Positions 12,196 through 28,944 are shown, counted from the first letter of the whole stretch. The stretch is 63,313 nucleotides of DNA, filler included, from Actinomycetota bacterium (GCA_025963875.1; 4 parts of 4 records of this genome joined end to end with filler, not necessarily neighbours in it), one strand, 5' to 3'. Translations and numbers: made by a program. The notes: generated from the letters alone by a model not told the origin.

Positions 12196-13224
12196 GTGAG
12201 GCGGCTTGGCGCCTGGCTTCAGCGCCCACTCGAAGATCGAACACTGGCCGAGCTGGTTCTGCATCGGCTGCGCTGGGCGCTGCTCGTGTTGCTCGTCGTG
12301 TTCGGCATCACCACCAGCGGCTACGTCGTCCTGGAGAGGTATGGCTGGATCGACGCCGCCTACATGGCCATCGTCACCCTGAGCACCGTCGGCTACGGCG
12401 AGGTCCACCCGCTGGATACCGTCGGCCGGATCTTCACGATGGGCGTCATCATCGCCGGATTCGGCACCTTCGTCTACGCTGCGACCACCCTCACCAACCT
12501 GTTCACGTCCGGAGAGGCAGTCACCCATATCCGTCGATCCAGAGGCAGGCGCATGCGAAGCGACATGGACCGCCACGTCATCGTCGTCGGCTTCGGCCTG
12601 GTCGGTCAGGCGGTGGCCCGGGGGGTCAGGGACCTCCAAGGACCGTGCCTCGTGATGGACCACGATCCCACCCGTGAGCAGGCGATCCTGGGTTGCGGCT
12701 ATGTGCCCATGATCGGCGACGCGACCGACGAGCACGACCTCCTCGAGGCAGGCATTCGACGGGCCGACGCACTCGTCGCCGCCGCCGACTCCGACGAGGT
12801 GAACCTGATCGTCACCCTCACCGCTCGGGCGCTCTGCCGCGAGCTGCGCATCGTGTCGCGGGTGAACGAGGCAGGCTGGCGGGACCGGATGACCCGGGCG
12901 GGAGCCGACGTCGCCCTCTCCCCCTACGCGTCCTACGGCATGTCACTCGCCGCGTCGGCGGTCACCCCGGCCGTCCTGGACGTCCACAGTCTGCCCCTGC
13001 TGGGGTTGGGGACCGAAGAGGTCGAGGTATCGGACGGGTCGCCGCTGGTGGGCCAGACCCTCAGCAGCGTCTCCGAGGCCCATCCGGGAGTGCTGGTCGT
13101 GGGTCTGCGGCGGGACAGCCGCCTTCATCGATGGCACGACGTCGAGGGAGCCATTGCGCCCGGTGATGTGCTGGTGGCGCTCGGGACGCCGGGTTCCCTC
13201 GGGGCCTTGGCCGAGAGCTCCTGA
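12196..13224 (+). CDS. Potassium channel protein with TrkA-N/TrkA-C (RCK) domains
   Basis: Two TM helices with TLSTVGYG selectivity filter, VVGFGLVG Rossmann motif, GDAT; start approximate. Confidence 0.92.
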   Translation: MRRLGAWLQRPLEDRTLAELVLHRLRWALLVLLVVFGITTSGYVVLERYGWIDAAYMAIVTLSTVGYGEVHPLDTVGRIFTMGVIIAGFGTFVYAATTLTNLFTSGEAVTHIRRSRGRRMRSDMDRHVIVVGFGLVGQAVARGVRDLQGPCLVMDHDPTREQAILGCGYVPMIGDATDEHDLLEAGIRRADALVAAADSDEVNLIVTLTARALCRELRIVSRVNEAGWRDRMTRAGADVALSPYASYGMSLAASAVTPAVLDVHSLPLLGLGTEEVEVSDGSPLVGQTLSSVSEAHPGVLVVGLRRDSRLHRWHDVEGAIAPGDVLVALGTPGSLGALAESS

Positions 13225-13234
13225 GACTCGGGGG

Positions 13235-13636
13235 TCAGCTCGGGACGGCGACGTTGAAGTCTGCCACTGCGTCAGTGGCGGCCAGGGCGGCTCGGAGCGC
13301 CTCGACGCGGCCCGGAACCGGCCGGTACCAGACCCAGGTCCCCCGCTTCTCCCGGGCCACGAGGCCGGCCTCGTAGAGAACTCGGAGATGGTGGCTCACG
13401 GTCGGCTGCGACCGGCCGAGGGGTTCCACGAGGGCGCAGGCGCAGACCTCTCCCTCCGGCTGAGCAGCGATGAGGCTGAAGAGCCGTAGGCGGGCAGGAT
13501 CGGCGAGGGCGGCGAAACCTCGGGCGAGTTCGGCCGCATCGGATTCATCGAGTGGCGCAGCGAGGATCGAAGGGCAACAGTCCTCGATGTCGTTGTCGAG
13601 CCCTGCCATGGGCAGCAGGGCCTTCTTCCTGCTCAT
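13235..13636 (-). CDS. arsR: ArsR/SmtB family repressor
   Basis: N-terminal CC, ALADPARLRL, VCAC, SQPTVSHHL and KRGTWVWY. Confidence 0.92.
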   Translation of the reverse strand: MSRKKALLPMAGLDNDIEDCCPSILAAPLDESDAAELARGFAALADPARLRLFSLIAAQPEGEVCACALVEPLGRSQPTVSHHLRVLYEAGLVAREKRGTWVWYRPVPGRVEALRAALAATDAVADFNVAVPS

Positions 13637-13928
13637 GCCATCCATCTTGACATGTCCACCGTATATGGACATTGGTCCATAGGCTTGGCAAGATAGGTTG
13701 ATATCGACTCATATCAATGCATTGGAGGCAGCTTGGTAGCTCCAGCCCTGTGCATCGCGGCCTCATCCCGGAGCGAGTGTTGCCCGCCAGGGAGTAGCGA
13801 TTTGACCCACAGCCAACTGGAGTCCCGGGACGACCTGTCGGGTGCCCGCACCGTCAACTTCGTCCCCATCACGTTCGACGCTTCGCCCGGGCAGAACTCC
13901 GGGCGCTCACCCCGCGGAAGGAGGCATC

Positions 13929-14339
13929 GTGAACGACGTCCCTGAAGTGCTCTTCGTGTGTATCCACAACGCCGGCCGGTCACAGATGGCCGCCGCCCTG
14001 CTTGATCACCACGCCCAGGGGCGGGTGCGCGTTCGGTCCGGGGGCTCGGCGCCCGGTGACAGCATCAACCCGGCGGTCGCTGCCGCGATGGCCGAGATCG
14101 GGCTCGACCTCTCCAAGGAGTTCCCGAAGCCGGTGACCGACGAGGCAGTCCGTGCCGCCGACGTCGTCGTCACGATGGGCTGCGGAGATGTGTGCCCCAT
14201 CTACCCCGGAAAGCGCTATGAGGACTGGGAGCTGAACGACCCCAAGGGCAAGAGCGTCGAGCAGGTCCGCCCCATCCGCGACGAGATCGACCAGAGGGTG
14301 CAGGCACTCCTCGTTGAGCTGACGGCCAGTGCGAACTGA
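13929..14339 (+). CDS. arsC: Arsenate reductase (LMW-PTP fold)
   Basis: LFVCIHNAGRSQMA, TMGCGDVCP and DP motifs; GGAGG RBS before GTG. Confidence 0.95.
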   Translation: MNDVPEVLFVCIHNAGRSQMAAALLDHHAQGRVRVRSGGSAPGDSINPAVAAAMAEIGLDLSKEFPKPVTDEAVRAADVVVTMGCGDVCPIYPGKRYEDWELNDPKGKSVEQVRPIRDEIDQRVQALLVELTASAN

Positions 14340-14512
14340 GCCGTCGAGGAGACGGGCAAGGCCCAAGTTCCTGCTTGGGCCCGACAGTTGAACGATGCGG
14401 CAGCGCTGGTGCTGCCGAGTAACCGAGGCGACTTTGCGGTCACCGGCACCATCTGTCCAGGCGATTCGGCAGCGACACCAGCTAGTGCATCCGATTCGGC
14501 GAGCCCCCAGTG

Positions 14513-14542
14513 TTTGTCGAATTCGGATCCGAATTCGACAAA
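14513..14542. repeat. Perfect 30-bp palindrome
   Basis: tttgtcgaattcggatccgaattcgacaaa equals its own reverse complement. Confidence 0.9.
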
Positions 14543-14685
14543 TCCGGGATCAGAGTGTCTTTGGAAAAGGTCCCACACCGGTCCCGACGTCCTACCTGGC
14601 GCCCTCACCTCTTTGGGCCCAGCGGATCGTGACGGCCCACAAGTCGCACCGACCTCTATGAACCCCGATCACCGATTTCGAGCCG

Positions 14686-15201
14686 GTGCCCTCGGCCCCG
14701 AAGGCGCAAAGGAGCGCCGTGCCTCTGGTCGGGGCGGCGGTGGTATGGGGATTCGTCCTGCTCATCCTGGCCACTGCCCTGCCAATCGTGACTCCGCAAG
14801 CCCCACCGTCTTTCGCGCCACCTCCGCCGTCGGCGAGCCCAGACGGTGCCGGAACCCCAGCGCTTCCGCCGCCCGCTTCCGGCCCCGCACCAGCGATCGT
14901 GCGCGTGCCGCAGGTCACGCTGGTCCACTATTACGGGCACTCGGTGCTGCTGCTCGTCGCGTTGCCGGCATTTGCTTCGTTCGTGGTGGGCCTGATGCTG
15001 TGGATGAGCGTTGCCAAGCGATCCAGGGCGGCCGGCATAGGAGCGTGGATCGTTGCTGTCATCGTCTTGGCGGCCGGTATCATCGGTTTCTTTACTTTCC
15101 TTTTCACTATCGGGCTCGCAATTGTCCCGATCGGGGTCCTGCTCATCTTCGCCTGCACCCGGGCAGCCCCGCTGTCCCATTCCCAAACCGGCGTCGTGTG
15201 A
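14686..15201 (+). CDS. Hypothetical membrane protein
   Basis: About four hydrophobic segments and a Pro-rich loop. Confidence 0.7.
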   Translation: MPSAPKAQRSAVPLVGAAVVWGFVLLILATALPIVTPQAPPSFAPPPPSASPDGAGTPALPPPASGPAPAIVRVPQVTLVHYYGHSVLLLVALPAFASFVVGLMLWMSVAKRSRAAGIGAWIVAVIVLAAGIIGFFTFLFTIGLAIVPIGVLLIFACTRAAPLSHSQTGVV

Positions 15202-15720
15202 TCGACGTCGTCCAGTCATGACGAGCCCGCCGGATGCGCTCCAAGAGCGGCACCAATAGGTACCCAATTACGGTTGCTTCAGACCCGTCCCCGCCGTCAG
15301 GCGGTCGACCTTGGCGGCCATGATGAAGTCGTTGTGCGTCTGCCCCCGGAGTCGTGGGTCGTGCGTGACGGCGCCGTCCCAGACGACGGATGTACTGCCT
15401 CACCGCCCTGGGCAAGCGCGAGGCAAAGAACGCCGTGGCTGACTTCTACCGGGACATCGGCCGTGCCCCCATTTGGGCGCCCGGTATCGAGACCATCTGA
15501 TGGCCTCGTTCTTTCCGTTCGCCATAGCCGCGGTGGCAGTCTTGGTGGCCGAGCGCTTCGGCGTGAGCCGCCAGTCGGTGCACGATTGAAGTTTGTCGCT
15601 ACAAGGAACGGGGGGGTGGCCGCCCTTGCCGATCAATCCCTCCGTACGCATCTGCGATGGGGGCGCCCGCCGGATCCGCCACGAGCGGGCCCGCCAGGGG
15701 CTCGACCAGTGCGACGGCGC

Positions 15721-15805
15721 ACCAGCCGATCCCATGAAGATCTGGTATCCACGAAAATTCTGTGAGTATGAGTCGACGCTGTACGTCGTTCTGTACTCAA
15801 AGAAT
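15721..15805 (+). repeat. 85-bp repeat (copy A) containing a 47-bp TTCT...AGAA palindrome
   Basis: 77/85 identical by eye to the reverse complement of 17734-17818. Confidence 0.9.
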
Positions 15806-15870
15806 GACCCGATGGACGATAACCCGACTCAGGAGGGTTGGTTACGCGTGCCGGGACAGACCGAGGGGTG

Positions 15871-16452
15871 ATGGGCACGGGTAGCATCTTCTTCGTCGAG
15901 TTGGCGGAGTGGGCCGAACAAGAGTCAAAGCGCCTGCTGGCCGGTACGGGCAACCGGTGGCTCCATGTCCAGGGGGTGGTGGGTCTGGCCCGCCAGGTGG
16001 TGGGGATCCTGCCTGAGAACGAGCGGCCAGTGCTCCTGGCAGCTGCGCATTTGCATGACGTGGGTTATGCGGAAGAGCTGGTTCGGTGCGGGGCGCATCA
16101 GCTCGACGGCGCAGAGTTCTTGCGAATGGCCGGCCAGAAACGGTTGGCGTGCATTGTGGCCCATCATTCCGAGGCGAGGTACGAGCTGGAGGCCAGGGGC
16201 TTGGGCTCGGAGCTGGCGGCCTACCAGCGTGAGGAGTCGGCGTTGACAGATGCCCTCACGTACTGCGACCTGCTGACTGGGCCGACGGGCATGCCGACAT
16301 CTTTGAGGGAGCGTGTGGCGGACGTTGAACGGCGCTATGGCGACGAGAGCCTCGTGGTGGATGCGCTCAGAAAGGCTCTGCCGACGTTGCAAGGAGCGGT
16401 GGAATGGACACGACTGCGGCTCGGCGGAGAGACGCAAACCGCTATCGGATGA
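15871..16452 (+). CDS. HD-domain metal-dependent phosphohydrolase
   Basis: RWLHVQGV, AAHLHDVGY, HQLDGA, VAHHS and LTYCD.TGP motifs. Confidence 0.9.
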   Translation: MGTGSIFFVELAEWAEQESKRLLAGTGNRWLHVQGVVGLARQVVGILPENERPVLLAAAHLHDVGYAEELVRCGAHQLDGAEFLRMAGQKRLACIVAHHSEARYELEARGLGSELAAYQREESALTDALTYCDLLTGPTGMPTSLRERVADVERRYGDESLVVDALRKALPTLQGAVEWTRLRLGGETQTAIG

Positions 16453-16912
16453 AGGCGCCGGGCTTGCCCTTCAGGTAGTCCTCGATGCGGAGACGGATCG
16501 ACGGATGCACGTTGAGTCCATCGATCTCGGCTGCGGGGAAGAACTTGACCTGGATGGATTCCCTGCTCGGCCGCAGGTCCCCCCCGACAATCCTGCAGGC
16601 GAAGCAGATCGAGAACTGTTGGCGCACCTCGCCGTCGTTGTAGGCGAAGACGTGGCCCGGGTCGGTGTAGACGCCGACTATCCGTTCTGGTTCCACAGTG
16701 AGTCCGGTCTCCTCCTGCACTTCCCTGGCAATCGCCTGGGCGATGCTCTCGCCGATGTCCATGACCCCTCCGGGCAGCGCCCACCGGCCGTTGTCGCTTC
16801 GGCGCTGGAGCAGGATGCGTCCCTCGTTGTCGGCCACGATCGCAGAAGCGCCAGGCACGAGCGAGTTGGCCTTAGGAGCGTCCGCTTGGTGGTAGTAGTC
16901 GATGCGGGTCAT
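16442..16912 (-). CDS. NUDIX hydrolase
   Basis: Nudix box PGGVMDIGESIAQAIAREVQEETG. Confidence 0.95.
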   Translation of the reverse strand: MTRIDYYHQADAPKANSLVPGASAIVADNEGRILLQRRSDNGRWALPGGVMDIGESIAQAIAREVQEETGLTVEPERIVGVYTDPGHVFAYNDGEVRQQFSICFACRIVGGDLRPSRESIQVKFFPAAEIDGLNVHPSIRLRIEDYLKGKPGAFIR

Positions 16913-17009
16913 GCCCGGACGTCACTTGTGGCTGCGAGAAGATCTTCGTTTGCCGGTCGGCGAGACTCCTCCCAGATCAGGTCGAACTGATCCAGGAAGT
17001 TGGCAAAGA
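16909..17009 (-). CDS. 3' end of a gene truncated by the contig end, possibly an XRE-type regulator
   Basis: FANFLDQFDLIWEES...VRA* with ATGA overlap on the NUDIX start; identity inferred from the XRE-NUDIX-HD arrangement common in actinomycete mobile elements. Confidence 0.5.
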
Positions 17010-17109
17010 NNNNNNNNNNNNNNNNNNNNNNNNNNNNNNNNNNNNNNNNNNNNTTAATTAATTAANNNNNNNNNNNNNNNNNNNNNNNNNNNNNNNNNNN
17101 NNNNNNNNN
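17010..17109. other. Artificial contig linker
   Basis: N-run, TTAATTAATTAA (stops in all six frames), N-run. Confidence 0.98.
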
Positions 17110-17432
17110 ACGCCGTCCATGATGTCGGGGTTCCCGGCCTTGCCGAGGGCGGTGATGCGGCCGTCGCGCACGCCGACGTCGGCCTTCACGACCCCCCAGT
17201 GGTCGAGCACGACGGCGTTGGTGATGACGAGGTCGACCGTCGAGAAGGTTGCCTGCCCCATCGACTCCCGGATGACCTTGCCGCCGCCGAAGACCGTCTC
17301 GTCGCCCGCTCCGGCCGGGGAGCAGCGGTCCTCCGTGGGCGAGATCCAGAGGTCGGTGTCGCCGAGGCGCACTCTGTCGCCGACAGTCGGGCCGTACAGT
17401 TCGGCATAGCGGCGGCGGTCGATGTTCGTCAT
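17110..17432 (-). CDS. ureC: Urease alpha subunit, 3' truncated
   Basis: [33 protein letters not shown] and GKAGNPD. Confidence 0.96.
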
Positions 17433-17719
17433 CGTCGCTGGAGGCCCGGGACCACCCGGCGCCCGGCCAGGGCGACGAGGTCGACGTCCTTCGACATGCC
17501 GGGCTCGAAGCGCACCCCGGTCCCGGCGGGGACGTCGAGGCGGAACCCCTGGGCCGCCCCGCGGTCGAAGGCGAGGGCCGCGTTCACGTCGGCGAAGTGG
17601 AAGTGCGACCCCACCTGCACCGGCCGGTCCCCGGTGTTCTCGACCACGAGGTGGCGCCGCTCCCGGCCCGGGTTGAGCTCCATGGAGCCCTCGGCCGCAA
17701 CGACCTCGCCGGGGATCAT
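17429..17719 (-). CDS. ureB: Urease beta subunit
   Basis: [20 protein letters not shown] and [15 protein letters not shown]. Confidence 0.97.
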
Positions 17720-17733
17720 CGGGGGCTCCCCAG

Positions 17734-17818
17734 ATTCTTTGAGTACAGAACGACGTACAGCGTCGATTCATACTCACAGAATCTCCACGGGTACGCGATC
17801 TTCATGGGATCGGCTGGT
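17734..17818 (-). repeat. 85-bp repeat (copy B) spanning the ureA 3' end and the ureA-ureB spacer
   Basis: Matches 15721-15805; internal 47-bp palindrome at 17735-17781. Confidence 0.9.
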
Positions 17819-18104
17819 GGAGCGTCACGAGCTTCGTGCCGTCGGGGAAGGTCGCCTCGACCTGGACCTCGTGGAGCAGCTCGGGAACGCCCTCCATCAC
17901 GTCCTCGCGGGCGAGCACCGCACGGCCCGCCGACATGAGGTCCGCCACGGTCCGGCCGTCCCGGGCCCCCTCGAGCACGAAGGACGAGAGGAGGGCGGTC
18001 GCCTCGGGGACGTTGAGCTTCAGCCCTCTGGCCCTGCGGTCCCGGGCGACCATCGCCGCCACGGAAAGGAGCAGCTTGTCGACGTCGGTGGGGGACAGCC
18101 TCAT
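17802..18104 (-). CDS. ureA: Urease gamma subunit
   Basis: 100 aa: RGLKLN.PE, EGARDG, DVMEGV and [19 protein letters not shown]. Confidence 0.97.
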
Positions 18105-18886
18105 GGCACCCGCTCCGGCGAAGGCGAGGCGGACCCGAACGCCCTGGGCAGAAGGCCCCAGACCTCCGGGTCGTGGCCCGGGATCATCAGCGCCCCCAGA
18201 GCGACCGCAGCCTCCTTGAAACGGTCGATGGAGGCGAGGGCCTGTTCCCGCCCGGCCAGCAGGATGCCCGGGGCGATCCGCTCGGTCAGGTTCCTCTGGG
18301 TGTCTGCGGCGTCCGCCGCGAGGGCGATCCATCCGTCGGGCAGCTCGACCAGCATCGACATGTGCCCCGGGCAGTGGCCCGGAGTGAACAGCAGCTGGAC
18401 GCCCGGCCACGGCTCGGCGTCGCCGTCGATGAGCTGCACGTCCAGCCCACCCTCGGTGAGCGGCGGCAGGTCGGCCGGGCGGTAGGCGAGGGAGTCGGGG
18501 GACGGGCCGTGCGCGTAGTCCCACTCGGCCTGCTGGATCCACACGCTCGTCTCCGGGGCGAGGCACCCGACGCCGCCGGCGTGGTCGACCATGAGGTGGC
18601 TGAGGACGCAGTCGGTCACCTCCTCGATGCCGAACCCCGCGGCAGCCAGGGCGTCGGGCAGGGCAACGACCTCGGGCGGAGGGTAGCCGGGGAAGGCCAG
18701 CTCCGACGGCGCAGCCGCTGGGTCGTAGCCGGTGTCGTAGAGGATGAGGCCTCCGTCGTCGCGCTCGACGACCCAGCCGGGGATCGGGATCCGGTCGCCC
18801 TCCCCGGGCGGATAGCCGTCGAGGGCGATGCAGCGGTCCAGCTCCTGCCACCCGAGGGTGAGCGGCACCAGGCGTTGCAGGGTCAT
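18101..18886 (-). CDS. Metallo-beta-lactamase-fold hydrolase (AHL-lactonase-like) with atypical HLMVDH motif
   Basis: [29 protein letters not shown] and PGHD; ATGA-coupled on both sides. Confidence 0.88.
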
Positions 18887-19878
18887 GCGGCGCGCAGCCT
18901 CGGGTCGGCCACGATCTGGGCCAGGTCGACCAGGGAGTTGATGACGACGTACAGCGCCCCGAGCACGAGCGTGACACCGGCGACGGCGGGGAAGTCGGTC
19001 GACGAGATCGACTGGACGGTGTAGAGGCCGACGCCGGGCCATGCGAAGACGGACTCGATGACGACCACGCCGGCGAGGAGCAGCCCGACCTGCAGGCCTC
19101 CCATCGTGAGCGGGGCGTTCAGCGCCGATCGCAGGGCGTGGCGCAGCAGCACGGTGCGCTCCTTGAGGCCCTTGGCGCGGGCGGTGCGGATGTGGTCCTG
19201 GGTGAGGACGGTCTGCAGCGACGAGCGCAGGGTCCGTCCGAGGGCCACCGCCGGCCCGAGCGCCAGGCAGAAGGCCGGCAGGGCAAGGTGCCACAGCGCG
19301 TCGGACACGACATCGAAGCGCCCGTGGACGAGGCCGTCGATCACCAGGAGGCCGGTCGGTCCGGCGGGCGGGGTGATGCTGGAGGAGAGCCGCCCGGAGC
19401 TGGGGAGGATGTGCCACTTGGAGTAGAAGAGCATCAGGAGCGCCAGGGCGAGCAGGAACGGCGGTGCCGATGCCCCCGCCAGCATCAGCAGGCGCGGCGC
19501 CGTTCCCTTGCCCCGGGCGGTGGCGATCCCCAGCAGCCCGCCGAGCACGGCGGCGATGATCGCTGCTGCTCCGGCGAGCTCGAGGGTCGCCGGAAGGAAG
19601 TTGCCCAGGTCCGTGACCACGGGCCGGCGGGTGCGCAGCGAGTCCGAGAGGTTGCCGGTCGCCGCCCGCCCGAGGAACCGGACGTACTGCACCGGCAGCG
19701 GCTTGTCGAAGCCGAGCTCGTGGCGCTTGGCGGCGACCGCCTCCTTCGTGGCCGACGCTCCCACCATCGCCCGCACCGGATCGGAGGGGATCATGGCCTC
19801 GAGGGCGAACACGATGGCGGAAAGGGCCAGCAGGATGACGGCGAGCGCCGCAAGCCGGGACAGGACGAGCCTTGCCAT
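18883..19878 (-). CDS. ABC transporter permease (DppB/OppB type)
   Basis: PSDP, LPATLEL, HLALPA, TARAKGL EAA loop, [12 protein letters not shown] and DPR. Confidence 0.95.
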
Positions 19879-21446
19879 CAGGACCTCGCCAGCGTCCCGA
19901 GCCGCAGGGCCCAGGGATAGTTGGGAACGTGCTCCACGTTGGTCAGATTCTTCCGCATCACCATGACGTCGCGCGTGTCGGCCAGGAAGAGGATGCCGTA
20001 GTCGGCGACGAGGAGCTGAGCGGCCTTGGCGTATGCCTGGGCCGAGGCTGCGGAGTCGGTCGTCGACGCCCCCTGGTTGAGGAGCGTGTCCACCTGGGGG
20101 TTGGAATAGCCAAGGAAGTTCAGGCCGCCGCCGGTGCCCCACAGGATGCGGGACCAGGTGTCGGGGTGGGCGGCGTCCGGGGTGTTGGTCATGAGCAGCA
20201 GGTCGGGCGCCTGGGCCAGGGTCTGCGGCGACGTGGCATATCCGTAGACCTGCGGGTTCGTGACCTCCTTGAGGGTCACCTGGAAGCCCTGGCCCTGCAG
20301 CTTCTGCTGGATGAGGCCGGCGAGGCGGCTCTGGATGCCCGACTCGTCGGACGTGTAGGCGAAGGTGATCGCCGGGGTGCCGGCGGGTGCTTTGACCGTG
20401 GCCGTCGGGTAGCTGATCGGCGCCAGCGACTGGTCGAGGATCCCCGGCGCGTACGGGGAGCCGGCGGGGTGGCCGTAGGAGCCGTAGATCTGGCTGACGA
20501 GCGTGTCACGGTCGATGTCCGCGGCCACCGCCTTCCGCAGGGCGAGGTTGTTGAACGGCGCCTTGTTGGCGTTGATGTAGAGCATCGACTGCAGGTACGA
20601 CGAGAAGTCCCTGATGGTGAGGTTGGGGTCGCTGCGGGCCGTCGGCAGCTCAGCCACCGGGAACGAGTGCAGGATGACGTCGAGGCCCCCCGAGCGGAGC
20701 TGGAGGATCTGGCTGTTCATGTCGGGGATGATCCGGATGTTGACGGTGGCGAAGTTGGGCTTCGGCCCCCAGTAGCTGTCGTTGCGGGTGAGCGTGTAGT
20801 TCTGGCCCCGGTTGAAGGCGGTCAGCTTGTAGGGGCCGGTCCCGTCCGCGTTGGTCTTGGCCCAGGTCTGGGCGAAGTCGTTGCCGGCGTTGTCGGTGAG
20901 GGCCTTGGGGCTGATGATCTTCGGCCCCCAGCTCGACGCCATGTAGTCCATGAACGGCGTGACCACGCTCTTGAGCTTCACGACGAAGGTCATGGGGTCG
21001 GGCGTCTGCATGTCGGCGACCTGGGCCAGCATGTACGCGGGGGCCGAGTTGACGCTGATCCGGCGCTGGAACGAGGCCTTCACCGCCGCGGCGTTGAAGG
21101 GCGTCCCGTCCTGGAAGGTGACGCCACTGCGGAGGTGGAAGGTGTAGGTGAGGGCGTCCGGGCTGATGTCCCACGAGGTCGCCAGCACGGGCTCGATCGT
21201 TGTCGAGTCCGGCTTGTAGTCGACGAGACCCTGGTAGGCGGACAGGATGACCGTGTTGCCTTCGATGTCGTAGAAGACGTCGGGGTCGGGCACGGACATG
21301 TCGGCGAGGTAGGCGAGGTTGAGGGTGCCGTTGGTGCTCGGCGTCGACCCGGCGCCGGTGGTCGACGACTTGGTCGAGCAGGCGCTGAGGACGAGGCCGG
21401 CCACGGCCACCAGACTGAACACACGGCGCATCGTTCCGGTTCTCAC
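19878..21446 (-). CDS. ABC substrate-binding lipoprotein, family 5 (peptide/nickel)
   Basis: Lipobox LSAC, LATSWDIS...YTFHLRSGVTFQDGTPF and GTGPY. Confidence 0.93.
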   Translation of the reverse strand: MRTGTMRRVFSLVAVAGLVLSACSTKSSTTGAGSTPSTNGTLNLAYLADMSVPDPDVFYDIEGNTVILSAYQGLVDYKPDSTTIEPVLATSWDISPDALTYTFHLRSGVTFQDGTPFNAAAVKASFQRRISVNSAPAYMLAQVADMQTPDPMTFVVKLKSVVTPFMDYMASSWGPKIISPKALTDNAGNDFAQTWAKTNADGTGPYKLTAFNRGQNYTLTRNDSYWGPKPNFATVNIRIIPDMNSQILQLRSGGLDVILHSFPVAELPTARSDPNLTIRDFSSYLQSMLYINANKAPFNNLALRKAVAADIDRDTLVSQIYGSYGHPAGSPYAPGILDQSLAPISYPTATVKAPAGTPAITFAYTSDESGIQSRLAGLIQQKLQGQGFQVTLKEVTNPQVYGYATSPQTLAQAPDLLLMTNTPDAAHPDTWSRILWGTGGGLNFLGYSNPQVDTLLNQGASTTDSAASAQAYAKAAQLLVADYGILFLADTRDVMVMRKNLTNVEHVPNYPWALRLGTLARS

Positions 21447-21470
21447 GAGCCCCCCTTTGGTCGCGTTGTT

Positions 21471-22337
21471 CTACGTGTGGCGCAGCAGATCCCTGATGCC
21501 GTCTCCGGCGAGGTTGGCGGCGAAGGCCAGGACGAAGATGGCGACGGCGGGCGCAAGGCACACCCAGGGCTGGCCGAAGAAGTAGGGCAGCCCCTGGGCG
21601 ACCATCGACCCGAGTTCGGGTGCCGGCGGCGGTGCGCCGAGGCCGATGAAGGCCAGGCCCGCCAGGGTGAGGACCAGGTTCCCGACATCGAGGCTGGCGG
21701 TGACGAGCACGGCCGGCAGCGCGCCGGGCAGGGCATGGCGGAAGGCGAGGCGCATCCTCCCGATCCTGGCGAGGCGTGCCGCATCGATGTGGGGCCGGAC
21801 CATCAAGGCCCGGACCTCCCCGCGTACGATGCGGGCGTACCAGGGCCACCAGACCACCCCCACCGCCAGGAGGGTGTGCGGCAGCGAGGGGCCGAGGGAC
21901 GCGACGATGGCGATGGCCAGGATGGGGCCGGGGAGGGCGAGGAAGAGGTCGGTGATCCGCATGAGCACGGTGTCGACCCACCCGCCCTTGAAGCCGGCGA
22001 CCAGGCCGATGAGCCCGCCGATCAGCACCCCGCTGGCGATGACGGCGATGGCGGAGAACCACGAGGAGCGAATGCCGTAGAGGACGCGGGAGGCGATGTC
22101 CCGGCTGAGGTCGTCGGTGCCAAGCAGGTGCGCCGCCGAGGGTTTCAGGAGCGGGCCCGCGGAGACCGGGAGGGTCGGGGCGTACGGGGCGAGGAGCGGC
22201 GCCGCCAGAGCGCCGATCGTGGTGAGCGCCAGGACGGCGAGGCCGATCTTCTCAAGCCGGCCGACCTTGAGGCTGGGGATGGCCCGCCGGCGGAGCGGGA
22301 GCGCCCCCCCGAGCGTGACGGGCTCCGCGACCCCCAT
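21471..22337 (-). CDS. ABC transporter permease (DppC/OppC type)
   Basis: HLLGTDDLSRD, RITDLFLALP, GLAFIGLG.P.PELG and GDGIRD. Confidence 0.95.
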   Translation of the reverse strand: MGVAEPVTLGGALPLRRRAIPSLKVGRLEKIGLAVLALTTIGALAAPLLAPYAPTLPVSAGPLLKPSAAHLLGTDDLSRDIASRVLYGIRSSWFSAIAVIASGVLIGGLIGLVAGFKGGWVDTVLMRITDLFLALPGPILAIAIVASLGPSLPHTLLAVGVVWWPWYARIVRGEVRALMVRPHIDAARLARIGRMRLAFRHALPGALPAVLVTASLDVGNLVLTLAGLAFIGLGAPPPAPELGSMVAQGLPYFFGQPWVCLAPAVAIFVLAFAANLAGDGIRDLLRHT

Positions 22338-24172
22338 CAGGCGTGCGCCTCGAACCGGGGGATCGCCCCCACGAGAGCGGCGGTGTGCGGATGCTGCGGG
22401 TTGGTGAGGATGTCCTCGGACGGCCCTTCCTCGATGATGCGTCCGCCCGCCATCACGGCGACGCGGTCGCCGATGAAGCGTGCGGCGGCGAGGTCGTGGG
22501 TCACGAACAGCATCGCCATGCCCAGCTCCGCGCGGAGGTTCATCAGCAGGTTGAGGACCGTGGCAGCGAGCGAGACGTCGAGTGCCGAGATCGGCTCGTC
22601 GCAGGCGAGCAGGGCGGGCGGCACCGCGACGGCCCGGGCGAGGGCGACGCGCTGGCGCTGGCCCCCCGAAAGCTGCCGGGGCCGCCGGGTGGCCACGTCG
22701 GCGGGGAGGCCCACCATCTGCAGCACCTCGACGGAGCGCGTCCTGCGTGCAGGGGCGTCGAGGCCGTCGGTCCGCAGGCGCTCCTCCAGCATCTCGCCGA
22801 CGGTGAGCCAGGGCGTCAGCGACGCGCCCGCGTCCTGGAACACGAGCTGCGGGGAGCCGCCGGGGCCGACGTGGATCTCGCCGCCATCCGGGTTCTCCAG
22901 GCCCACCGCCATGCGGAGCGTGGTGGTCTTGCCGCAACCGCTCTCGCCCACGAGGGCGAGTGAGCCGCCGGCCGGGACCTCGAGGCTGAGCCCATCCACG
23001 ACCGCCCTGCGACGGTCGCCCTTGCCGAAGGCTTTGGTGATATCGGTGAGGAGGAGAGCGGGGCCCGGGTGCGGGGTGGCCCCAGTGGGCCCTCTTTTTT
23101 GCCCCAGGGGGACCCCGACATCGAGCGTGGCCGCGCCCTCGGGGTCCCCCCTGGGACTGGGTGCCTCCCTGACCCGGAGCCGGGCGCCGGCGCTCTCGCC
23201 GGCGTGCAGGCAGGCGACGAGCCCGTCGTGGGTCGGGGCGGCCTCGGGCTCGGGCAGGGCGGCGTCACAGGCGGGCTCGGCCAGCGGGCAGCGGGGGGCG
23301 AAGGGGCACCCCGGGGGAAGCGCCCTGGGGTCGGGGGGCTCGCCCTCCAGCGTCGGCAGCATCGTGGCGCGGGGTGAGTCGCCCCGGAGGCGTGCGGCCA
23401 TCAGGGCAACGGTGTACGGGTGGCAGGGGCGGTGCAGCACGTCGGCCGCCGGGCCGATCTCGGCAAGCCTTCCCCCGTAGAGCACGGCGATGCGGTCGGC
23501 CAGCTCGGCGGCGACGGCAAGGTCGTGGGTGACGAACAGGATCGAGGAGCCGGTCTCGTCGCGGATGGTTGTGAGCAGCGCCAGGATCTCTGCCTGCACC
23601 GTGACGTCGAGGGCGGTGGTGGGCTCGTCGGCGACGACGAGGTCGGGGCTACCGGCGATCGCCATTGCGATCATCACGCGCTGGCGCAGGCCACCGGACA
23701 GCTCGTGTGGATACTGGCCGGCCCGGCGCCTGGGTTCGGGCACCCTCGCCCGCTCGAGGGCTTCGATGGCCGCCTCCGTGGACCCGGCAGCTTCGGCGAC
23801 CTGCCTGCCGACCTTCATCGTCGGGTTGAGCGAGGTCATCGGGTCCTGGAAGACCGCACCCGCGTACCGGCGGCGGGCGAGCCGGCGCTCCTCGTCGCTG
23901 GTGCCCACCATCTGCCGGCCGTCGAGCAGGACGCTGCCCGTGATGGTCGCCGCCGGGGGAAGCAGCCCGAGGGCGGCGAGGCCGAGGACGCTCTTGCCGG
24001 AGCCCGACTCGCCGACGAGGCCGACGATCTCGCCGGGGGCGATGTCGAGCGTCACGCCCCGCAGGGCCTTCACGGCGCCCGGGAAGGTGACGGCCAGGTC
24101 CCGGATGGCCAGGACCGGCGCGCGGACCGCGGGGGCCCGTTCGGCTTCGATCGCTTCCGCCGCCGTGCTCAC
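22337..24172 (-). CDS. Fused double ABC ATPase (DppD/F type)
   Basis: Two Walker A motifs (GESGSGKS, GESGCGKT), two LSGG signatures, HPYT and GC.FAPRC. Confidence 0.95.
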   Translation of the reverse strand: MSTAAEAIEAERAPAVRAPVLAIRDLAVTFPGAVKALRGVTLDIAPGEIVGLVGESGSGKSVLGLAALGLLPPAATITGSVLLDGRQMVGTSDEERRLARRRYAGAVFQDPMTSLNPTMKVGRQVAEAAGSTEAAIEALERARVPEPRRRAGQYPHELSGGLRQRVMIAMAIAGSPDLVVADEPTTALDVTVQAEILALLTTIRDETGSSILFVTHDLAVAAELADRIAVLYGGRLAEIGPAADVLHRPCHPYTVALMAARLRGDSPRATMLPTLEGEPPDPRALPPGCPFAPRCPLAEPACDAALPEPEAAPTHDGLVACLHAGESAGARLRVREAPSPRGDPEGAATLDVGVPLGQKRGPTGATPHPGPALLLTDITKAFGKGDRRRAVVDGLSLEVPAGGSLALVGESGCGKTTTLRMAVGLENPDGGEIHVGPGGSPQLVFQDAGASLTPWLTVGEMLEERLRTDGLDAPARRTRSVEVLQMVGLPADVATRRPRQLSGGQRQRVALARAVAVPPALLACDEPISALDVSLAATVLNLLMNLRAELGMAMLFVTHDLAAARFIGDRVAVMAGGRIIEEGPSEDILTNPQHPHTAALVGAIPRFEAHA

Positions 24173-24771
24173 GCGGCCACGAGCTTGCGGATTGCGGCCA
24201 GGACCTCGTCGCTCGTCCGCCGGGCACCCGTCTGCAGGTACTCCATGGCCTCGAGGGCGGCGGTGTGGGCGCGCAGGTCGGAACCGCCGACGCAGTCCTC
24301 CAGCACGCGCACGTGGTAGTCGCGCTGATGGGCGTCGGCGAACGTGTAGTGCACGCAGACGTTGGTCAGGTTGCCGGCGAGCAGGAGCGTCTGCACGCCG
24401 AGGCCCCGCAGCAGGATGTCGAGGTCGGTGTGGATGAAGCAGGAGTACCGGCGCTTCTGGATGAAGTAGTCGCCGGGCCTGGGGCGCAGCTCGTCGACCA
24501 GGTCGGTGCCGGGATCGCCCTCCAGGCAGTGGACGCCCTCGGCGCCGTCCAGCTCGCGGCCGAAGTCCACGAGGTCCCGGCGGTGGATCTCCTGGAAGAA
24601 GATCACCGGGATACCGGCGCCGTGGCACGCGTCCACGACGGTCACCACCCGGTTGATGCGCTCCTGGTACCCGGCCATGTGGGAGATGCCGGAGGTTTCG
24701 AAGGGCTCGAGGCCCCCCTTCTGCATGTCGATGACAATCAGCGCCGCCCTGCCACCGATCAGCTCCCGCAC
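24169..24771 (-). CDS. Isochorismatase-like cysteine hydrolase
   Basis: Asp-Lys-Cys triad in IVIDMQ, IQKRRYS and GNLTNVCV; GGAGG RBS before GTG. Confidence 0.93.
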   Translation of the reverse strand: MRELIGGRAALIVIDMQKGGLEPFETSGISHMAGYQERINRVVTVVDACHGAGIPVIFFQEIHRRDLVDFGRELDGAEGVHCLEGDPGTDLVDELRPRPGDYFIQKRRYSCFIHTDLDILLRGLGVQTLLLAGNLTNVCVHYTFADAHQRDYHVRVLEDCVGGSDLRAHTAALEAMEYLQTGARRTSDEVLAAIRKLVAA

Positions 24772-24810
24772 GCTTCCTCCTTCATCGCCCTGTACATCTC
24801 AAGGGAGGCG

Positions 24811-24850
24811 GAAAAGCGTGGAGGCCCGGGGCGCACATGCGTGGGCCTCC
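24811..24850 (-). terminator. Riboswitch expression-platform hairpin/terminator overlapping the aptamer 3' end
   Basis: Minus strand: ggaggccc...gggcctcc followed by acgctttt; its 5' arm uses the conserved GGAG tail of the aptamer. Confidence 0.65.
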
Positions 24851-24968
24851 CGGGCTTTTGTCCCTCCGTGTAGCGGCGCCGTCTTCCCACGGGACCGCTG
24901 GCACCTCTCGGACCAGGCCCCCCGGCTGGCCACAGGATCGTGGCTCCGGGAGCGGAACCCTAGGTGCT
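24846..24968 (-). ncRNA. Guanidine-I (ykkC-yxkD subtype 1) riboswitch
   Basis: Minus strand reads gcacCTAGGGTTCCG...CTGGTCCGAGAGgtgc...ACACGGAGGGACAAAAGCCCGGGAG, containing all hallmark conserved blocks; it lies in the 5' leader of the operon. Confidence 0.93.
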
Positions 24969-24977
24969 CTCAGGCGT

Positions 24978-25031
24978 AATGTACGTGGCGTTTGTTTCCG
25001 CCGTATTACCTGCCGGTAACGTTGCTGTTGC
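24978..25031 (-). promoter_or_regulatory. Promoter with GlnR-like boxes and a -10 element
   Basis: Minus strand GCAAC-n6-GTTAC-n6-GTAAT-n6-GAAAC (exact 11-bp spacing), then TACATT about 10 nt upstream of the aptamer. Confidence 0.72.
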
Positions 25032-25107
25032 AGTATGGACCGACCCGCCCCAGACTCCCGACCCGCTTTGCAGGAAGTGGTCGGGACGGAGGGGTTAACC
25101 TCACCGC

Positions 25108-25812
25108 GTGCAACCCATCCTCACCGCCAAGCCATCCGCCGTCCTGCTCGACTTCTACGGGACGATGGCGCGGGCGACGTCGCGCGGGCCGTTGGCCGGG
25201 GAGCTGTTCGGTCGTCGGGGGTTTGCCTTTGACCAGGAACTGTGGGACCGGCACCGGTGGGACGCCCTCGACGGCCTCGACCACCAGCAGTTCTCCGGCA
25301 CCCGGGAGGACTATGAGGCCTGGGAGGTGGACCGGCTGCGGCGAGCCGCCGAGGCCTGTGGCGTGGGCCTCGACGACGCCGAGGAGCTCATCGCCGAGCT
25401 GTATGCGGCGTCGAAGGACTTCACGGTGTCCGCCTACGAGGAGGTGCCCGCGGTGCTCGAGGAGCTACGGCGACGGGGCGTGGTCCTCGGTGTCTGCTCG
25501 AACTGGGACTGGGATCTCGACCGGGTCCTGGACGAGGCCGGCCTCACGCCACTGATGGACTTCGCCGTGACGTCCGCCAGGGCGGGCGTCCGCAAGCCCC
25601 ATCCCCTCATCTTCGAGCGCGCCCTGGAGCTGGCCGGCGTCGGCCCCGGCGACGCGCTCTTCGTCGGCGACTCGTGGATCGCCGATGTCGAGGGCGCACG
25701 GTCGGCCGGCATCCCACCGGTGCATGTCTGGCGCGGGCCGGAGGAGCCCCCGCCGCTGGTGGACGGGATCTGGCGGATCCCCGACCTGCGGGGCCTGCTC
25801 GACCTGGTCTGA
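25108..25812 (+). CDS. HAD-IA family hydrolase
   Basis: LLDFYGT, CSNWD, RKPHP and FVGDSWIADVEGA. Confidence 0.92.
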   Translation: MQPILTAKPSAVLLDFYGTMARATSRGPLAGELFGRRGFAFDQELWDRHRWDALDGLDHQQFSGTREDYEAWEVDRLRRAAEACGVGLDDAEELIAELYAASKDFTVSAYEEVPAVLEELRRRGVVLGVCSNWDWDLDRVLDEAGLTPLMDFAVTSARAGVRKPHPLIFERALELAGVGPGDALFVGDSWIADVEGARSAGIPPVHVWRGPEEPPPLVDGIWRIPDLRGLLDLV

Positions 25813-25843
25813 CGGCGCCCTTGTGCGCGCGTCCGGCGATCAC

Positions 25844-25877
25844 TGTATGCTCATGCATCATGGCGCATAACTATTCT
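25844..25877 (+). promoter_or_regulatory. Tandem ARG-box-like (ArgR) operator
   Basis: tgtatgctcatgca and cgcataactattct in an AT-rich patch at the argC start; resembles TGCATRnnnATGCA. Confidence 0.6.
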
Positions 25878-26903
25878 GCATGCCGGGTGGCGGTCCTGGG
25901 GGCTTCCGGGTTCGCCGGCGGCGAGCTGCTCCGCATCCTCGCCCGGCACCCGGGCATGGAGCTCGTGGCCGCGGGGGCGTCGTCGAAGGTCGGGATGCCG
26001 GTTCGCTCGCTCTATCCGTGGATCTCGTTCGAGGGTTCCTTCGTTGCCGCGGAGGACGCCCTGGCGGCGAGCCCGGACCTCCTGTTCGCGTCGCTGCCGC
26101 ATACCCAGAGCATGGAGCTCCTCGGGGCGTGGGACGGCGGGTACGCCGTGGACCTCGGCGGCGACTTCCGCCTCCGGGACCCGGGCGTCTACCGCGAGTG
26201 GTTCGGGGCAGAGCACTCCCACCCCGACGCCCTGAGTGGCTGGGTCTACGGGCTCACCGAGTGGCGCCGCCCCGAGATCGCCGCAGCCGCACGCGTGGCG
26301 AACCCGGGGTGCTATCCGACTGCCACGATCCTCGCGCTGGCGCCGCTGCTGGCGGCCGGCGCCGTCGCTGCCGAGGGCATCCACATCGACGCCCAGTCCG
26401 GCGTGTCCGGTGCGGGCCGCGCCACGGGCGAGGGCTTCGACTTCGTCTCGGTCAACGAGAACCTGCGCCCCTATGCCGTGACGGGGCACAAGCACATTGC
26501 CGAGATGGAGCAGGAGCTCTCGGCGGCCGCCGGGTCCCCCGTGAGAGTCAGCTTCGTTCCCCATCTGGTGCCGGTGACCCGCGGGCTGCTGGCAACCTGC
26601 AGCGCCCCCCTTACGGGCGTCGCCTCGACCGAGGAGCTCCTGGAGATCTTCCACCACCGGTACAAGGAGGAACCGTTCGTCCGGGTGATGGGCGCCGGCG
26701 AGCTGCCGGCGACGAAGGGGGTCACGGGCACCAACGTCGCCGAGGTGACGGTCAGGGCGGACGCCAGGACCGGCAGGGCGATCGCCTTCTGCGCCATCGA
26801 CAACCTCGGCAAGGGTGCCGCGGGGCAGGCGGTGCAGAACGCCAACCTGATGCTCGGTTTCGACGAGGCGACCGCCCTCGACACCGCGGGCCTGGCTCCA
26901 TGA
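25860..26903 (+). CDS. argC: N-acetyl-gamma-glutamyl-phosphate reductase
   Basis: GASGFAGGE, ANPGCYPT, SGVSGAG and DNLGKGAAGQAVQN; start uncertain (25860 or 25887). Confidence 0.96.
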   Translation: MAHNYSACRVAVLGASGFAGGELLRILARHPGMELVAAGASSKVGMPVRSLYPWISFEGSFVAAEDALAASPDLLFASLPHTQSMELLGAWDGGYAVDLGGDFRLRDPGVYREWFGAEHSHPDALSGWVYGLTEWRRPEIAAAARVANPGCYPTATILALAPLLAAGAVAAEGIHIDAQSGVSGAGRATGEGFDFVSVNENLRPYAVTGHKHIAEMEQELSAAAGSPVRVSFVPHLVPVTRGLLATCSAPLTGVASTEELLEIFHHRYKEEPFVRVMGAGELPATKGVTGTNVAEVTVRADARTGRAIAFCAIDNLGKGAAGQAVQNANLMLGFDEATALDTAGLAP

Positions 26904-28084
26904 GCCCGTTCACCGACATCCCCGGGGCCGTCTGCGCCGCCACGGGGTTCCGGGCGGCCGGCGTGGCCGCGGGCCTGAAGCGCTCCGGGGGCCTCGATCT
27001 CGCCCTCATCGTTTCCGACACACCCGCATCGGCGGCCGGCGTGTTCACCGCCCACCGGGCGGCGGCGGCGCCGGTGCACGTCTCACGCGAACGGCTGGCG
27101 GGCGGTGTGGCGCAGGTGATCGTGGTGAACGCCGGTTGCGCCAACGCCGTCACCGGCGCCCGGGGCCGCCGGGATGCCGAGGCGATGGCGGCAGAGGCGG
27201 CAGCTGCAATCGGGGTGGATCCCGGGCTGGCGCTCGTGTGCTCGACCGGCAAGATCGGCAACTTCCTGCCGATGGACCGGGTGTCGTTGGGCATCGCCGA
27301 GGCTGCCGGCAGGTTGGGCACCGACGACCTCTCGGCGGCCGACGCCATCCTCACCACCGACACCCGCCGCAAGACGGCGGCGCTGTCCCACGACGCCGGA
27401 TGGCGCCTCGGGGGGATGGCCAAGGGGGCGGGGATGATCTCGCCCGACATGGCGACGATGCTCGCCTTCATCACGACGGATGCGGTCGTCGCTCCCGACG
27501 TCCTCCAGAAGGCGCTGACCGCTGCGGTCAACGACTCGTTCAACGCCATCACCGTCGACGGGGAGTGCAGCACCAACGACACCGTCCTCGTGCTCGCCAA
27601 CGGCGCCTCGGGCGTGACGCCGTCCGCGGACGACGTGGCGGCGGCGCTGGGTTCGGTCTGCACCAGCCTCGCCCGGGCCATCGTCGCCGACGGCGAAGGC
27701 GCCACCAAGTTCGTCCGCGTCTCCGTGAGCGGTGCCAGGACACCCGAGGAGGCCCGGCGGGCGGCCCGGTCGGTGGCCGAGTCGCCGCTCGTCAAGTGCG
27801 CCCTGTTCGGGGAGGACGCGAACTGGGGCAGGGTGGCGGCGGCCCTCGGCAAGACCGACGTCGGGCTCGACCTCGACGTCCTGTCGATCGCCATGGGTGG
27901 TGTGACGCTCTTCGACCGGGGCCAGCCGGTCGACGGGGATGCCGAGGCCCGGGCCCACGAGGGCCTCACTGCCCACGAGATCTCGATCGACTGCGACCTC
28001 GCCGTGGGCGACGCCAGCGGCGAGATCCTCACGACCGACTTCTCGCACGGCTACGTCGACATCAATGCCGAATACGAGCCATGA
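26900..28084 (+). CDS. argJ: Ornithine acetyltransferase / N-acetylglutamate synthase
   Basis: AKGAGMISPDMATML, STNDT, DGEGATK and DANWGR. Confidence 0.97.
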   Translation: MSPFTDIPGAVCAATGFRAAGVAAGLKRSGGLDLALIVSDTPASAAGVFTAHRAAAAPVHVSRERLAGGVAQVIVVNAGCANAVTGARGRRDAEAMAAEAAAAIGVDPGLALVCSTGKIGNFLPMDRVSLGIAEAAGRLGTDDLSAADAILTTDTRRKTAALSHDAGWRLGGMAKGAGMISPDMATMLAFITTDAVVAPDVLQKALTAAVNDSFNAITVDGECSTNDTVLVLANGASGVTPSADDVAAALGSVCTSLARAIVADGEGATKFVRVSVSGARTPEEARRAARSVAESPLVKCALFGEDANWGRVAAALGKTDVGLDLDVLSIAMGGVTLFDRGQPVDGDAEARAHEGLTAHEISIDCDLAVGDASGEILTTDFSHGYVDINAEYEP

Positions 28085-28944
28085 GTCGGGAACAGGCGCA
28101 GGCCAAGGCCCAGGTGCTGACCGAGGCCCTGCCGTACATCCGGCAGTGGGCGGGCAAACGGGTGGTGGTGAAAGCGGGTGGCGAGACGGTGGACAAGCCC
28201 GGCATGCTCGACTCGCTCGCCCGCGACGTCGCCCTCATGCGGGCGGTGGGCCTGCACCCCATCCTCGTCCACGGCGGTGGGCGCCAGATCTCCGACGCGA
28301 TGAAGGCCAGCGGCGTGGAGCCCGTCTTTGTCGGCGGCCGCCGGGTCACCGACGCGGCGACCATCGAGGTGGTGAAGCGGGTCCTGCTGGACATCAACGC
28401 CCGCCTCGTGAACGCCCTGCAGCGCTACGGCGCACATGCATTCGGCGTCTCGGGGGAGGAGGGCGGCCTGCTCACCACCCGCAGGGCGTCCGGGCCGAAC
28501 GGGGAGGACCTCGGCTTCGTCGGGGAGGTGGAGCGCGTGGAAACCTCGGTGCTCGACTTCTCGCTCGGCCGGGACCTGATCCCGGTGATCGCACCGGTGG
28601 GGGCCGGACCCGACGGGCCCTACAACATCAACGCCGACCTGGCGGCGTCGGCCCTCGCCATCGCGGTGCGCGCCCAGAAGATCGTGCTGCTCACCAACAT
28701 CGAGGGCCTCTACCGTGACCTGGGCGACCGGGACAGCCTCATCTCCGAGACGACGGTGCGCCAGCTCGAGAAGCTGATCGGCGAAGGGGTCCTCACCGAG
28801 GGCATGATCCCGAAGATCACCGCCGTCATCGAGGCGATGCAGGCCGGCGTGCCCCAGGCGCACATCCTCGACGGCCGGGTCTCCCATGCGCTCCTGCTGG
28901 AGGTCTTCACCGAAGAAGGCATCGGGACCATGGTGCTGCCGTGA
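28081..28944 (+). CDS. argB: Acetylglutamate kinase
   Basis: EALPYI, VHGGG, YNINAD, GMIPK and HALLLEVFT.EGIGT. Confidence 0.97.
   Translation: MSREQAQAKAQVLTEALPYIRQWAGKRVVVKAGGETVDKPGMLDSLARDVALMRAVGLHPILVHGGGRQISDAMKASGVEPVFVGGRRVTDAATIEVVKRVLLDINARLVNALQRYGAHAFGVSGEEGGLLTTRRASGPNGEDLGFVGEVERVETSVLDFSLGRDLIPVIAPVGAGPDGPYNINADLAASALAIAVRAQKIVLLTNIEGLYRDLGDRDSLISETTVRQLEKLIGEGVLTEGMIPKITAVIEAMQAGVPQAHILDGRVSHALLLEVFTEEGIGTMVLP

Follow-up and report, generated by a model that had tools for sequence, protein, structure and literature searches.

Organization of the locus

We analysed a window of 63,313 bases from an Actinomycetota bacterium (GCA_025963875.1), the window being the whole stretch of DNA under study. 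It contains a guanidine-I (ykkC subtype 1) riboswitch followed by nine genes, whose products are a cysteine hydrolase, the components of an ABC importer, a protein of the MBL fold and urease subunits, and the best overall explanation of this locus is that it probably represents a guanidine-induced nitrogen-assimilation operon. The window is composed of four contigs placed end to end (1-17009, 17110-29079, 29180-38468 and 38569-63313), separated by three N44-TTAATTAATTAA-N44 linkers at 17010-17109, 29080-29179 and 38469-38568. As these are separate contigs, the adjacency in the genome of genes on either side of a linker is not known. The operon is present on the second contig, and since position 17110 is the end of this contig, with a linker starting at 17109, the operon breaks off within ureC, at codon 107.

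All nine genes lie on the minus strand behind the riboswitch, and their Pfam and NCBIfam identities agree with those first described. Gene A (24169-24771) encodes an isochorismatase-family cysteine hydrolase of 200 amino acids (PF00857, 155 bits). The importer is of the Dpp/Opp/Nik type and comprises a fused double ATPase of 611 amino acids with two ABC_tran and two oligo_HPY domains (B, 22337-24172), a DppC/NikC-like permease (C, 21471-22337; PF00528), a family-5 substrate-binding lipoprotein of 522 amino acids (D, 19878-21446; PF00496, 230.9 bits) and a DppB/NikB-like permease (E, 18883-19878; PF00528 and PF19300). These are followed by the gene for an MBL-fold protein of 261 amino acids (F, 18101-18886; PF00753), ureA for the urease gamma subunit (17802-18104; PF00547), ureB for the beta subunit (17429-17719; PF00699) and the first 107 codons of ureC for the alpha subunit (17110-17432; PF00449, 147 bits). 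At six of the eight gene junctions, the reading frames share 1 or 4 bases, as seen where the GTG start of the ATPase gene B overlaps the stop of A, and the remaining two junctions leave spacers of 24 and 82 nucleotides. This confirms the initial annotation of nine co-directional and mostly translationally coupled genes.

The guanidine-I riboswitch and its terminator

The aptamer spans 24974-24845 on the minus strand, and matched the Rfam model RF00442 with 75.1 bits (gathering score 63, E 1.5e-11) over positions 1-107 of 107. A covariance model that we built from 10 related copies scored it at 89.2 bits. Every strongly conserved block is held by the aptamer, namely CUAGGGUUCCG, GGUCCGAGAG and ACACGG.GGGA.AAAAGCCCGGGAG. 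Pocket nucleotides distinguish ykkC subtype 2 from subtype 1.

An intrinsic terminator that forms the expression platform lies over the 3' end of the aptamer (24810-24850, minus strand). It consists of an 8-bp GC hairpin at 24850-24820 followed by a short U-tract, ACGCUUUUCC, at 24819-24810. A 71-nucleotide piece containing the terminator folded with a minimum free energy of -35.6 kcal/mol, a value that no shuffled sequence out of 200 equalled (z -3.26). When the whole leader was folded, the extended terminator stem paired bases (AAAAGC and GGAGG) that form part of the aptamer helix P3 and 3' tail. A terminator that competes with P3 is the usual layout of a guanidine-induced ON switch, and the binding of guanidine is predicted on the basis of sequence. 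Both parts of the earlier description, a complete subtype-1 aptamer and a terminator overlapping it, are therefore upheld.

A relative of the operon continues to a predicted guanidinase gene

Relatives were collected by searching with an alignment of hydrolase A against species-representative genomes, resulting in 80 loci. Locus L001, from an Acidimicrobiales metagenome-assembled genome, showed the exact gene order of the window with 63-89% protein identity and a riboswitch in front, and is the sole relative that has both this order and a long contig. The L001 operon continues with genes for a full-length UreC, UreF, UreG, UreD, an arginase-family protein, a formamidase/acetamidase-family protein and RidA. 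The arginase-family gene runs in the same orientation as ureD, whose end it overlaps, and the genes turn convergent after RidA. Comparison of the arginase-family protein with the PDB gave matches to 9fek (E 1.5e-202) and to 7esr/7oi1 (E 3.5e-173), which are identified in a section of PMC11410670 as the guanidinase of Nitrospira inopinata and GdmH of Synechocystis, respectively. Judged by its sequence, the L001 protein is a clear orthologue of the nickel guanidinase GdmH. A single arginase-family gene, a single guanidine-I copy and one clear urease were found in the L001 genome, a second urease match reaching only 25 bits. Neither ureE nor a hypA/hypB-type gene was seen in the L001 operon. The formamidase/acetamidase-family and RidA genes close this operon after gdmH (L085:3200-4632), and such a pair is also found in L047 (69% and 47% identity), near the importer-hydrolase cassette described below.

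A metagenome scan with the MBL protein identified 21 contigs, all of which show the order importer, MBL protein and urease as far as each extends. Sibling contigs go on in the order ureC-ureF-ureG-ureD, with ureF reached by five of the 21 (L088, L089, L090, L092 and L094), ureG by L092 and L094, and ureD by L094, and none of the 21 extends past ureD. The only one that extends to the 5' end, L089, carries the riboswitch. Genome G002 is a second genome with a window-type operon and has the riboswitch, on an operon contig of 6.7 kb in a fragmented assembly. In a search of other genomes, the window-type MBL protein was found in only 2 of 61 relatives of genome G001 and, of 401 genomes belonging to its class, in one, G001 itself.

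The initial annotation held that none of the usual guanidine-catabolic genes appears in the operon. This is correct up to the end of the contig, but L001 has the GdmH orthologue after ureD. A canonical guanidinase immediately downstream, together with inactivity of both hydrolases on guanidino or ureido substrates, had also been named as a finding that would refute the original proposal, and the gdmH gene of L001 supplies the first half of it. We consider it reasonably likely that gdmH follows ureD in the window lineage too.

The urease and the extent of the transcription unit

The operon urease appears to be an ordinary urease by the sequence of its subunits. UreA and UreB of the window both pass NCBIfam equivalog cut-offs (NF009712, 156.9 bits against 123, and NF009682, 147.2 bits against 129). 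The full-length UreC of L001 scored 1030 against the urease-alpha equivalog cut-off of 907, and the 107-residue UreC fragment of the window, scoring 174 against the same cut-off, is 88.6% identical to it. A diverged urease paralogue that acts as a guanidine hydrolase was considered and rejected, since L001 UreC passes the equivalog cut-off and belongs to the only clear urease found in that genome.

The 82-nucleotide gap between ureA and ureB contains a hairpin-forming repeat (17734-17801, minus strand; fold z -4.05). The repeat is around 90 nucleotides long (17734-17826), and an inverted second copy that is 88-91% alike, at 15720-15805 on the first contig, precedes an open reading frame (ORF) for an HD-domain protein. 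In relatives, the ureA-ureB spacer varies, being filled by other sequences or absent. The repeat is probably an insertion and not a working part of the operon, and looks like a small mobile palindromic element.

This spacer bears on the possibility that the riboswitch governs only the first gene or genes, with the urease genes and any gdmH expressed mainly from internal promoters, so that the genes would be clustered but would not form one regulon. The strong hairpin in the spacer could be read in this manner, and the L001 urease, as the only clear urease found in its genome, should serve ordinary urea use too. Operons of ~13-15 kb often have internal starts. However, stop/start overlaps run from the hydrolase gene through ureA and again from ureB to ureC, terminator-like sites within the gene string are not in excess (two, compared to a mean of 1.6 in shuffled sequences), the ureA-ureB spacer is at most 3 nucleotides in L001, L091, L094, L095, L102 and L103, and the gene order is kept on the 21 metagenome contigs. 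Separate expression of the urease genes is therefore unlikely, and we favour a single operon under the control of the riboswitch.

A recurrent importer-hydrolase cassette

The importer and hydrolase genes also occur together outside the window lineage. Defining a cassette by the presence of ATPase and permease homologues of at least 45% identity within 6 kb of A, we found it in 35 of the 80 loci, with a family-5 binding protein in all 35 and an F-type MBL protein in 29. MBL proteins of alphaproteobacterial loci are ~20% identical to F of the window and were not counted as the same gene. The usual order is ATPase, permease, permease, hydrolase, binding protein and MBL protein, with the B-C-E-A-D order seen in 31 cassette loci, and the hydrolase gene is therefore placed within the transporter genes. 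A guanidine-I riboswitch was detected before eight of the 35 cassettes (L001, L004, L009, L013, L021, L028, L033 and L049). Locus L049 comes from Luedemannella flava JCM 13250, which is cultivable.

Genes of guanidine metabolism are found beside a number of these cassettes. A GdmH orthologue (80% identity) directly follows the riboswitch in L013 and heads the cassette. In L033, the cassette is followed by CgdA and CgdB, both above their NCBIfam cut-offs, and then by a carboxyltransferase piece of urea/guanidine carboxylase. This piece (L033:17218-19149) covers positions 449-1109 of the 1201 of the model and lacks the regions for biotin carboxylase and the biotin carrier. The ORF behind it encodes a mycosin-like protease, and the piece may represent a split or truncated carboxylase. 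A guanidine/urea carboxylase is present upstream in seven further loci, and arginase-family paralogues with 35-39% identity to GdmH were found in L028, L013 and L047. An EFE-like 2-oxoglutarate oxygenase, with 9ovh as its best solved relative (E 7e-61), is encoded in 25 of the 35 cassette loci, allantoinase and allantoicase, both over cut-offs, in L006, and creatininase-family and GS-like proteins in L002, L008 and L009. Beside the cassette of L032, a guanidine-I riboswitch (L032:3318-3428, minus strand) precedes genes for an EFE-like oxygenase, a protein with a weak match to HRI1 and a luciferase-like monooxygenase, and these switched oxygenase genes may form a methylguanidine-type demethylation unit.

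We examined five genomes with a switched cassette for further guanidine operons. A separate operon of riboswitch, GdmH and an SsuA-type ABC importer was present in G062 and G064, and one of riboswitch, CgdAB and carboxylase in G063 and G066, while G065 had neither type. Since four of the five genomes contain a separate switched pathway, the cassette normally adds to the canonical guanidine pathway and does not replace it. In the lineage of the window and L001, the cassette and the canonical pathway are fused in one operon. Our literature search covered the main texts of open papers, and within it we found nothing on the cassette, nor on a guanidine riboswitch or ykkC element with an isochorismatase-like or cysteine hydrolase.

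The MBL-fold protein and the cysteine hydrolase

MBL protein F is a distant relative of the AiiA lactonase (E 1e-21 with AiiA in the PDB). Its HLMVDH sequence aligns to HLHFDH of AiiA, and one metal ligand is missing (HxMxDH). The H[LM]MVDH form was seen in all 12 intact urease-linked copies that were checked, while mycobacterial-type copies retain HxHxDH. An assignment as an AiiA-type lactonase was rejected, since the HxHxDH dinuclear zinc motif is not kept and the score with the AiiA model was 105 bits against a cut-off of 375. The gene, flanked by the last permease gene and ureA, is intact in 10 sibling contigs and is a remnant, with various deletion end points, in six of 16 informative contigs (L097, L098, L102, L103, L104 and L106). 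These deletions look like ongoing gene loss in natural populations. Their frequency indicates that the MBL protein is dispensable and a poor candidate for a key guanidine hydrolase, and we conclude that it is an accessory protein.

Hydrolase A is an isochorismatase-like cysteine hydrolase by its PF00857 match and by the positions of the Asp, Lys and Cys residues. The residues D15, K106 and C139 did not vary among 18 homologues, and the latter two match their counterparts in an alignment with the biuret hydrolase BiuH (6xjm). This enzyme is also its nearest solved relative (E 9e-23), followed by a carbamoylsarcosine-amidase-related protein and RutB. Assignment as BiuH or RutB was rejected, as the scores of 89.8 against 370 (BiuH, NF050097) and 86.3 against 378 (RutB) are around one quarter of the equivalog cut-offs. 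Hydrolase A shares 33% identity with the guanylurea hydrolase that has been characterised from plasmid pMET-2. The two known guanylurea hydrolases are 44.8% identical to each other, and a passage of PMC9800807 indicates that identity is no predictor of substrate in this family.

Orthologues of hydrolase A with 50-63% identity adjoin importers of other ABC families, namely PotD-type importers in Roseibium and Thalassovita, an amino-acid-type importer on a Yoonia plasmid and a sulfonate/nitrate-type importer on a Gloeocapsopsis plasmid. Hydrolase A is always embedded in an importer operon, and its association with such varied importers suggests that they deliver its organic substrate, and not nickel. 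On a Streptomyces plasmid, two hypothetical proteins encoded after the hydrolase were considered as formamidase-like, and this was not borne out. By analogy with the guanylurea hydrolase, the likeliest role of hydrolase A would be to strip a carbamoyl or acyl amide from an imported compound and thereby feed guanidine or urea to the pathway, though taken by itself we consider this role somewhat short of probable.

The initial annotation proposed that one of the two hydrolases, or a urease paralogue, is a new guanidine hydrolase. The GdmH orthologue of L001, the ordinary urease and the altered and deletable MBL protein suggest that no such enzyme is needed, although a new guanidine hydrolase may still be present. 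If hydrolase A, or the MBL protein, were a nickel-independent guanidine hydrolase that makes urea, the window lineage would not need GdmH. Arginine deiminase offers a precedent, in which a cysteine attacks a guanidinium carbon. In the window, L001, L033 and L089, the hydrolase gene leads the operon behind the switch, the switch controls only importer and hydrolase in L004, L021 and L049 (with an MBL protein in L021), and G002 has switch, cassette and urease, yet no arginase-family gene or CgdB was found in its assembly. On the other hand, that assembly is fragmented, and the hydrolase accompanies a true GdmH in L001 and L013, lies near one in L073 and occurs with CgdAB in L033. The separately switched canonical pathway in four of five genomes, the frequency of hydrolase orthologues in loci without a guanidine gene and the loss of the MBL protein from six of 16 informative contigs all argue in the same direction. 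We judge this proposal to be improbable, slightly more so than separate expression of the urease genes, and GdmH remains our preferred guanidinase for the lineage.

The importer and the question of nickel

The initial annotation offered nickel import for urease as an alternative role of the ABC system. In its broader form, the importer would take up nickel or a nickel chelate for both urease and GdmH, which are nickel-dependent according to a passage of a 2025 review (PMC12186494), and the two hydrolases would be unrelated passengers. The best NCBIfam matches of permeases C and E and of the binding protein are nickel systems (Opp2B/C and NikA/B/C), those of permease C being nickel or peptide permeases, all matches of both permeases are under cut-offs, and the lack of a ureE or hypA/hypB-type gene in the L001 operon could be cited in support. 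The NikD model was passed (338.6 against 318.7), but the models for NikA (156 against 393), NikB (203 against 447), NikC (235 against 358) and NikE (327.6 against 332.55) were all missed. Binding protein D, which has an N-terminal LSAC lipobox in its translation, has 5u4o as its best solved relative (E 9e-43).

The genomic context does not favour nickel import. The same cassette precedes the nickel-free CgdAB and the carboxylase piece in L033, the hydrolase gene is placed between permease and binding-protein genes in the 31 B-C-E-A-D loci, and orthologues of the hydrolase are embedded in the PotD-, amino-acid- and sulfonate/nitrate-type importers mentioned above. With cysteine hydrolase orthologues in importer operons of four ABC families, nickel import is very unlikely, and we prefer uptake of guanidine or a closely related organic compound.

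Other features of the window

Upstream of the riboswitch, genes for a HAD-family hydrolase and then argC, argJ and argB run divergently at 25108-28944 on the plus strand. Apart from the riboswitch, Rfam detected one element in the window, a tRNA at 11988-12060 (plus strand, 52.3 bits). An ORF at 10395-10748 (minus strand) encodes Lys/Ala/Pro repeats (KKAAPAK-like) that are reminiscent of actinobacterial histone-like tails.

A proposed route from guanidine to ammonia

The analysis supports the earlier view of a guanidine-linked nitrogen-scavenging operon that ends in urease, and a possible sequence of events is as follows. Guanidine binding to the riboswitch would stop termination, so that the whole gene string is transcribed, and the importer would take up guanidine or a close derivative of it. 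GdmH, the presence of which on the window contig is presumed from L001, would split guanidine to urea and ammonium, and urease would convert the urea to CO2 and ammonia. In this way, the products of one transcription unit would set free all three nitrogens of guanidine.

Several observations weigh against this interpretation. Co-transcription and induction are deduced from gene overlaps only, and the 82-nucleotide spacer with its inserted repeat lies between ureA and ureB. gdmH is present on none of the four contigs of the window, and G002 shows no arginase-family gene, GdmH or CgdB in its fragmented assembly, although with an operon contig of only 6.7 kb the lack of gdmH there says little. 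The identity of hydrolase A to the guanylurea hydrolase is only 33%, and it falls under the BiuH and RutB cut-offs. Hydrolase orthologues are also found far from guanidine genes, with 45 of the 80 loci lacking the cassette, and the seven mycobacterial cassette loci that were scanned show no Rfam element, other classes of guanidine riboswitch included.

Comparison with known systems

The window operon has in common with known GdmH operons a guanidine-I switch before an importer and, in L001, a GdmH orthologue, the urea being finished by urease. In the four model genomes, urease is encoded elsewhere, at sites outside guanidine riboswitch control, as described in a portion of PMC11410670, whereas the window operon contains ureABC, with ureFGD in its siblings. 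A statement in the 2025 review (PMC12186494) likewise has it that riboswitches control urea carboxylase genes but not urease genes, and given these two accounts urease behind a guanidine-I switch is a new arrangement. The GdmH models also have a sulfonate/nitrate-type importer or an APC permease where the window has a Dpp/Nik-type importer, and in comparison with them the window operon is without hypA/hypB-type nickel-insertion genes and carries the additional cysteine hydrolase and MBL protein.

The guanylurea hydrolase of pMET-2, whose product is guanidine according to a passage of PMC9800807, is likewise encoded within an ABC importer operon (binding protein, deaminase, hydrolase, permease and ATPase). 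It differs in an insertion of ~13 residues that is lacking in hydrolase A, and in its importer, which is sulfonate-type with no riboswitch reported, while the importer of the window is Dpp/Nik-type and placed behind a riboswitch. BiuH- and RutB-type hydrolases have the fold and the Asp-Lys-Cys positions in common with hydrolase A, and the known ones remove a terminal carbamoyl amide; hydrolase A is distant from them, as seen from the 6xjm match and the NCBIfam scores. Among named systems, NikABCDE and Opp2 importers scored highest with the permeases and binding protein, and a link to nickel enzymes is a further common feature, but four of the five Nik models were missed, and the cassette is found beside guanidine carboxylase genes that need no nickel, and always with the hydrolase.

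A related cassette lies beside an EFE-like oxygenase (25 of 35 loci) in actinobacterial guanidine/methylguanidine islands, for which the MgdH/MgdL operon of Vreelandella boliviensis is a point of comparison. In those islands the cassette is also found beside creatininase/GS-like genes, allantoinase and allantoicase, or guanidine carboxylase, and neither these genes nor the oxygenase gene is present in the window operon. MgdH/MgdL are described in PMC12508155, a part of which states that guanidine importers have not been studied.

Implications

The logic of the pathway is known, the placement of urease inside a switched operon is new, and the importer-hydrolase cassette is the unexplained part. 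To our knowledge, only two routes of guanidine breakdown and one kind of ABC importer have been described in what is a young field. The cassette may be an unrecognised arm of the guanidine regulon, either through a metal-free hydrolase of guanidine or substituted guanidines, or through the import and unmasking of a natural compound that yields guanidine, and we put this forward as a tentative suggestion that is more doubtful than the amide-stripping role of hydrolase A.

In this soil Actinomycetota lineage, a single guanidine switch seems to command every step between uptake and the release of ammonia. The analysis also singles out a widespread module, a family-5 ABC importer with an isochorismatase-like hydrolase, that stands behind the same riboswitch in several actinobacterial lineages. 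If the hydrolase were a metal-free guanidine hydrolase, it would constitute a third route of guanidine breakdown and explain the recruitment of urease into the operon, and if a guanidine-yielding compound is unmasked instead, that compound would be widespread in soil and sea. Finding the substrate of this module could point to a natural source of guanidine not yet known, or to a guanidine-related enzyme activity of a new kind.

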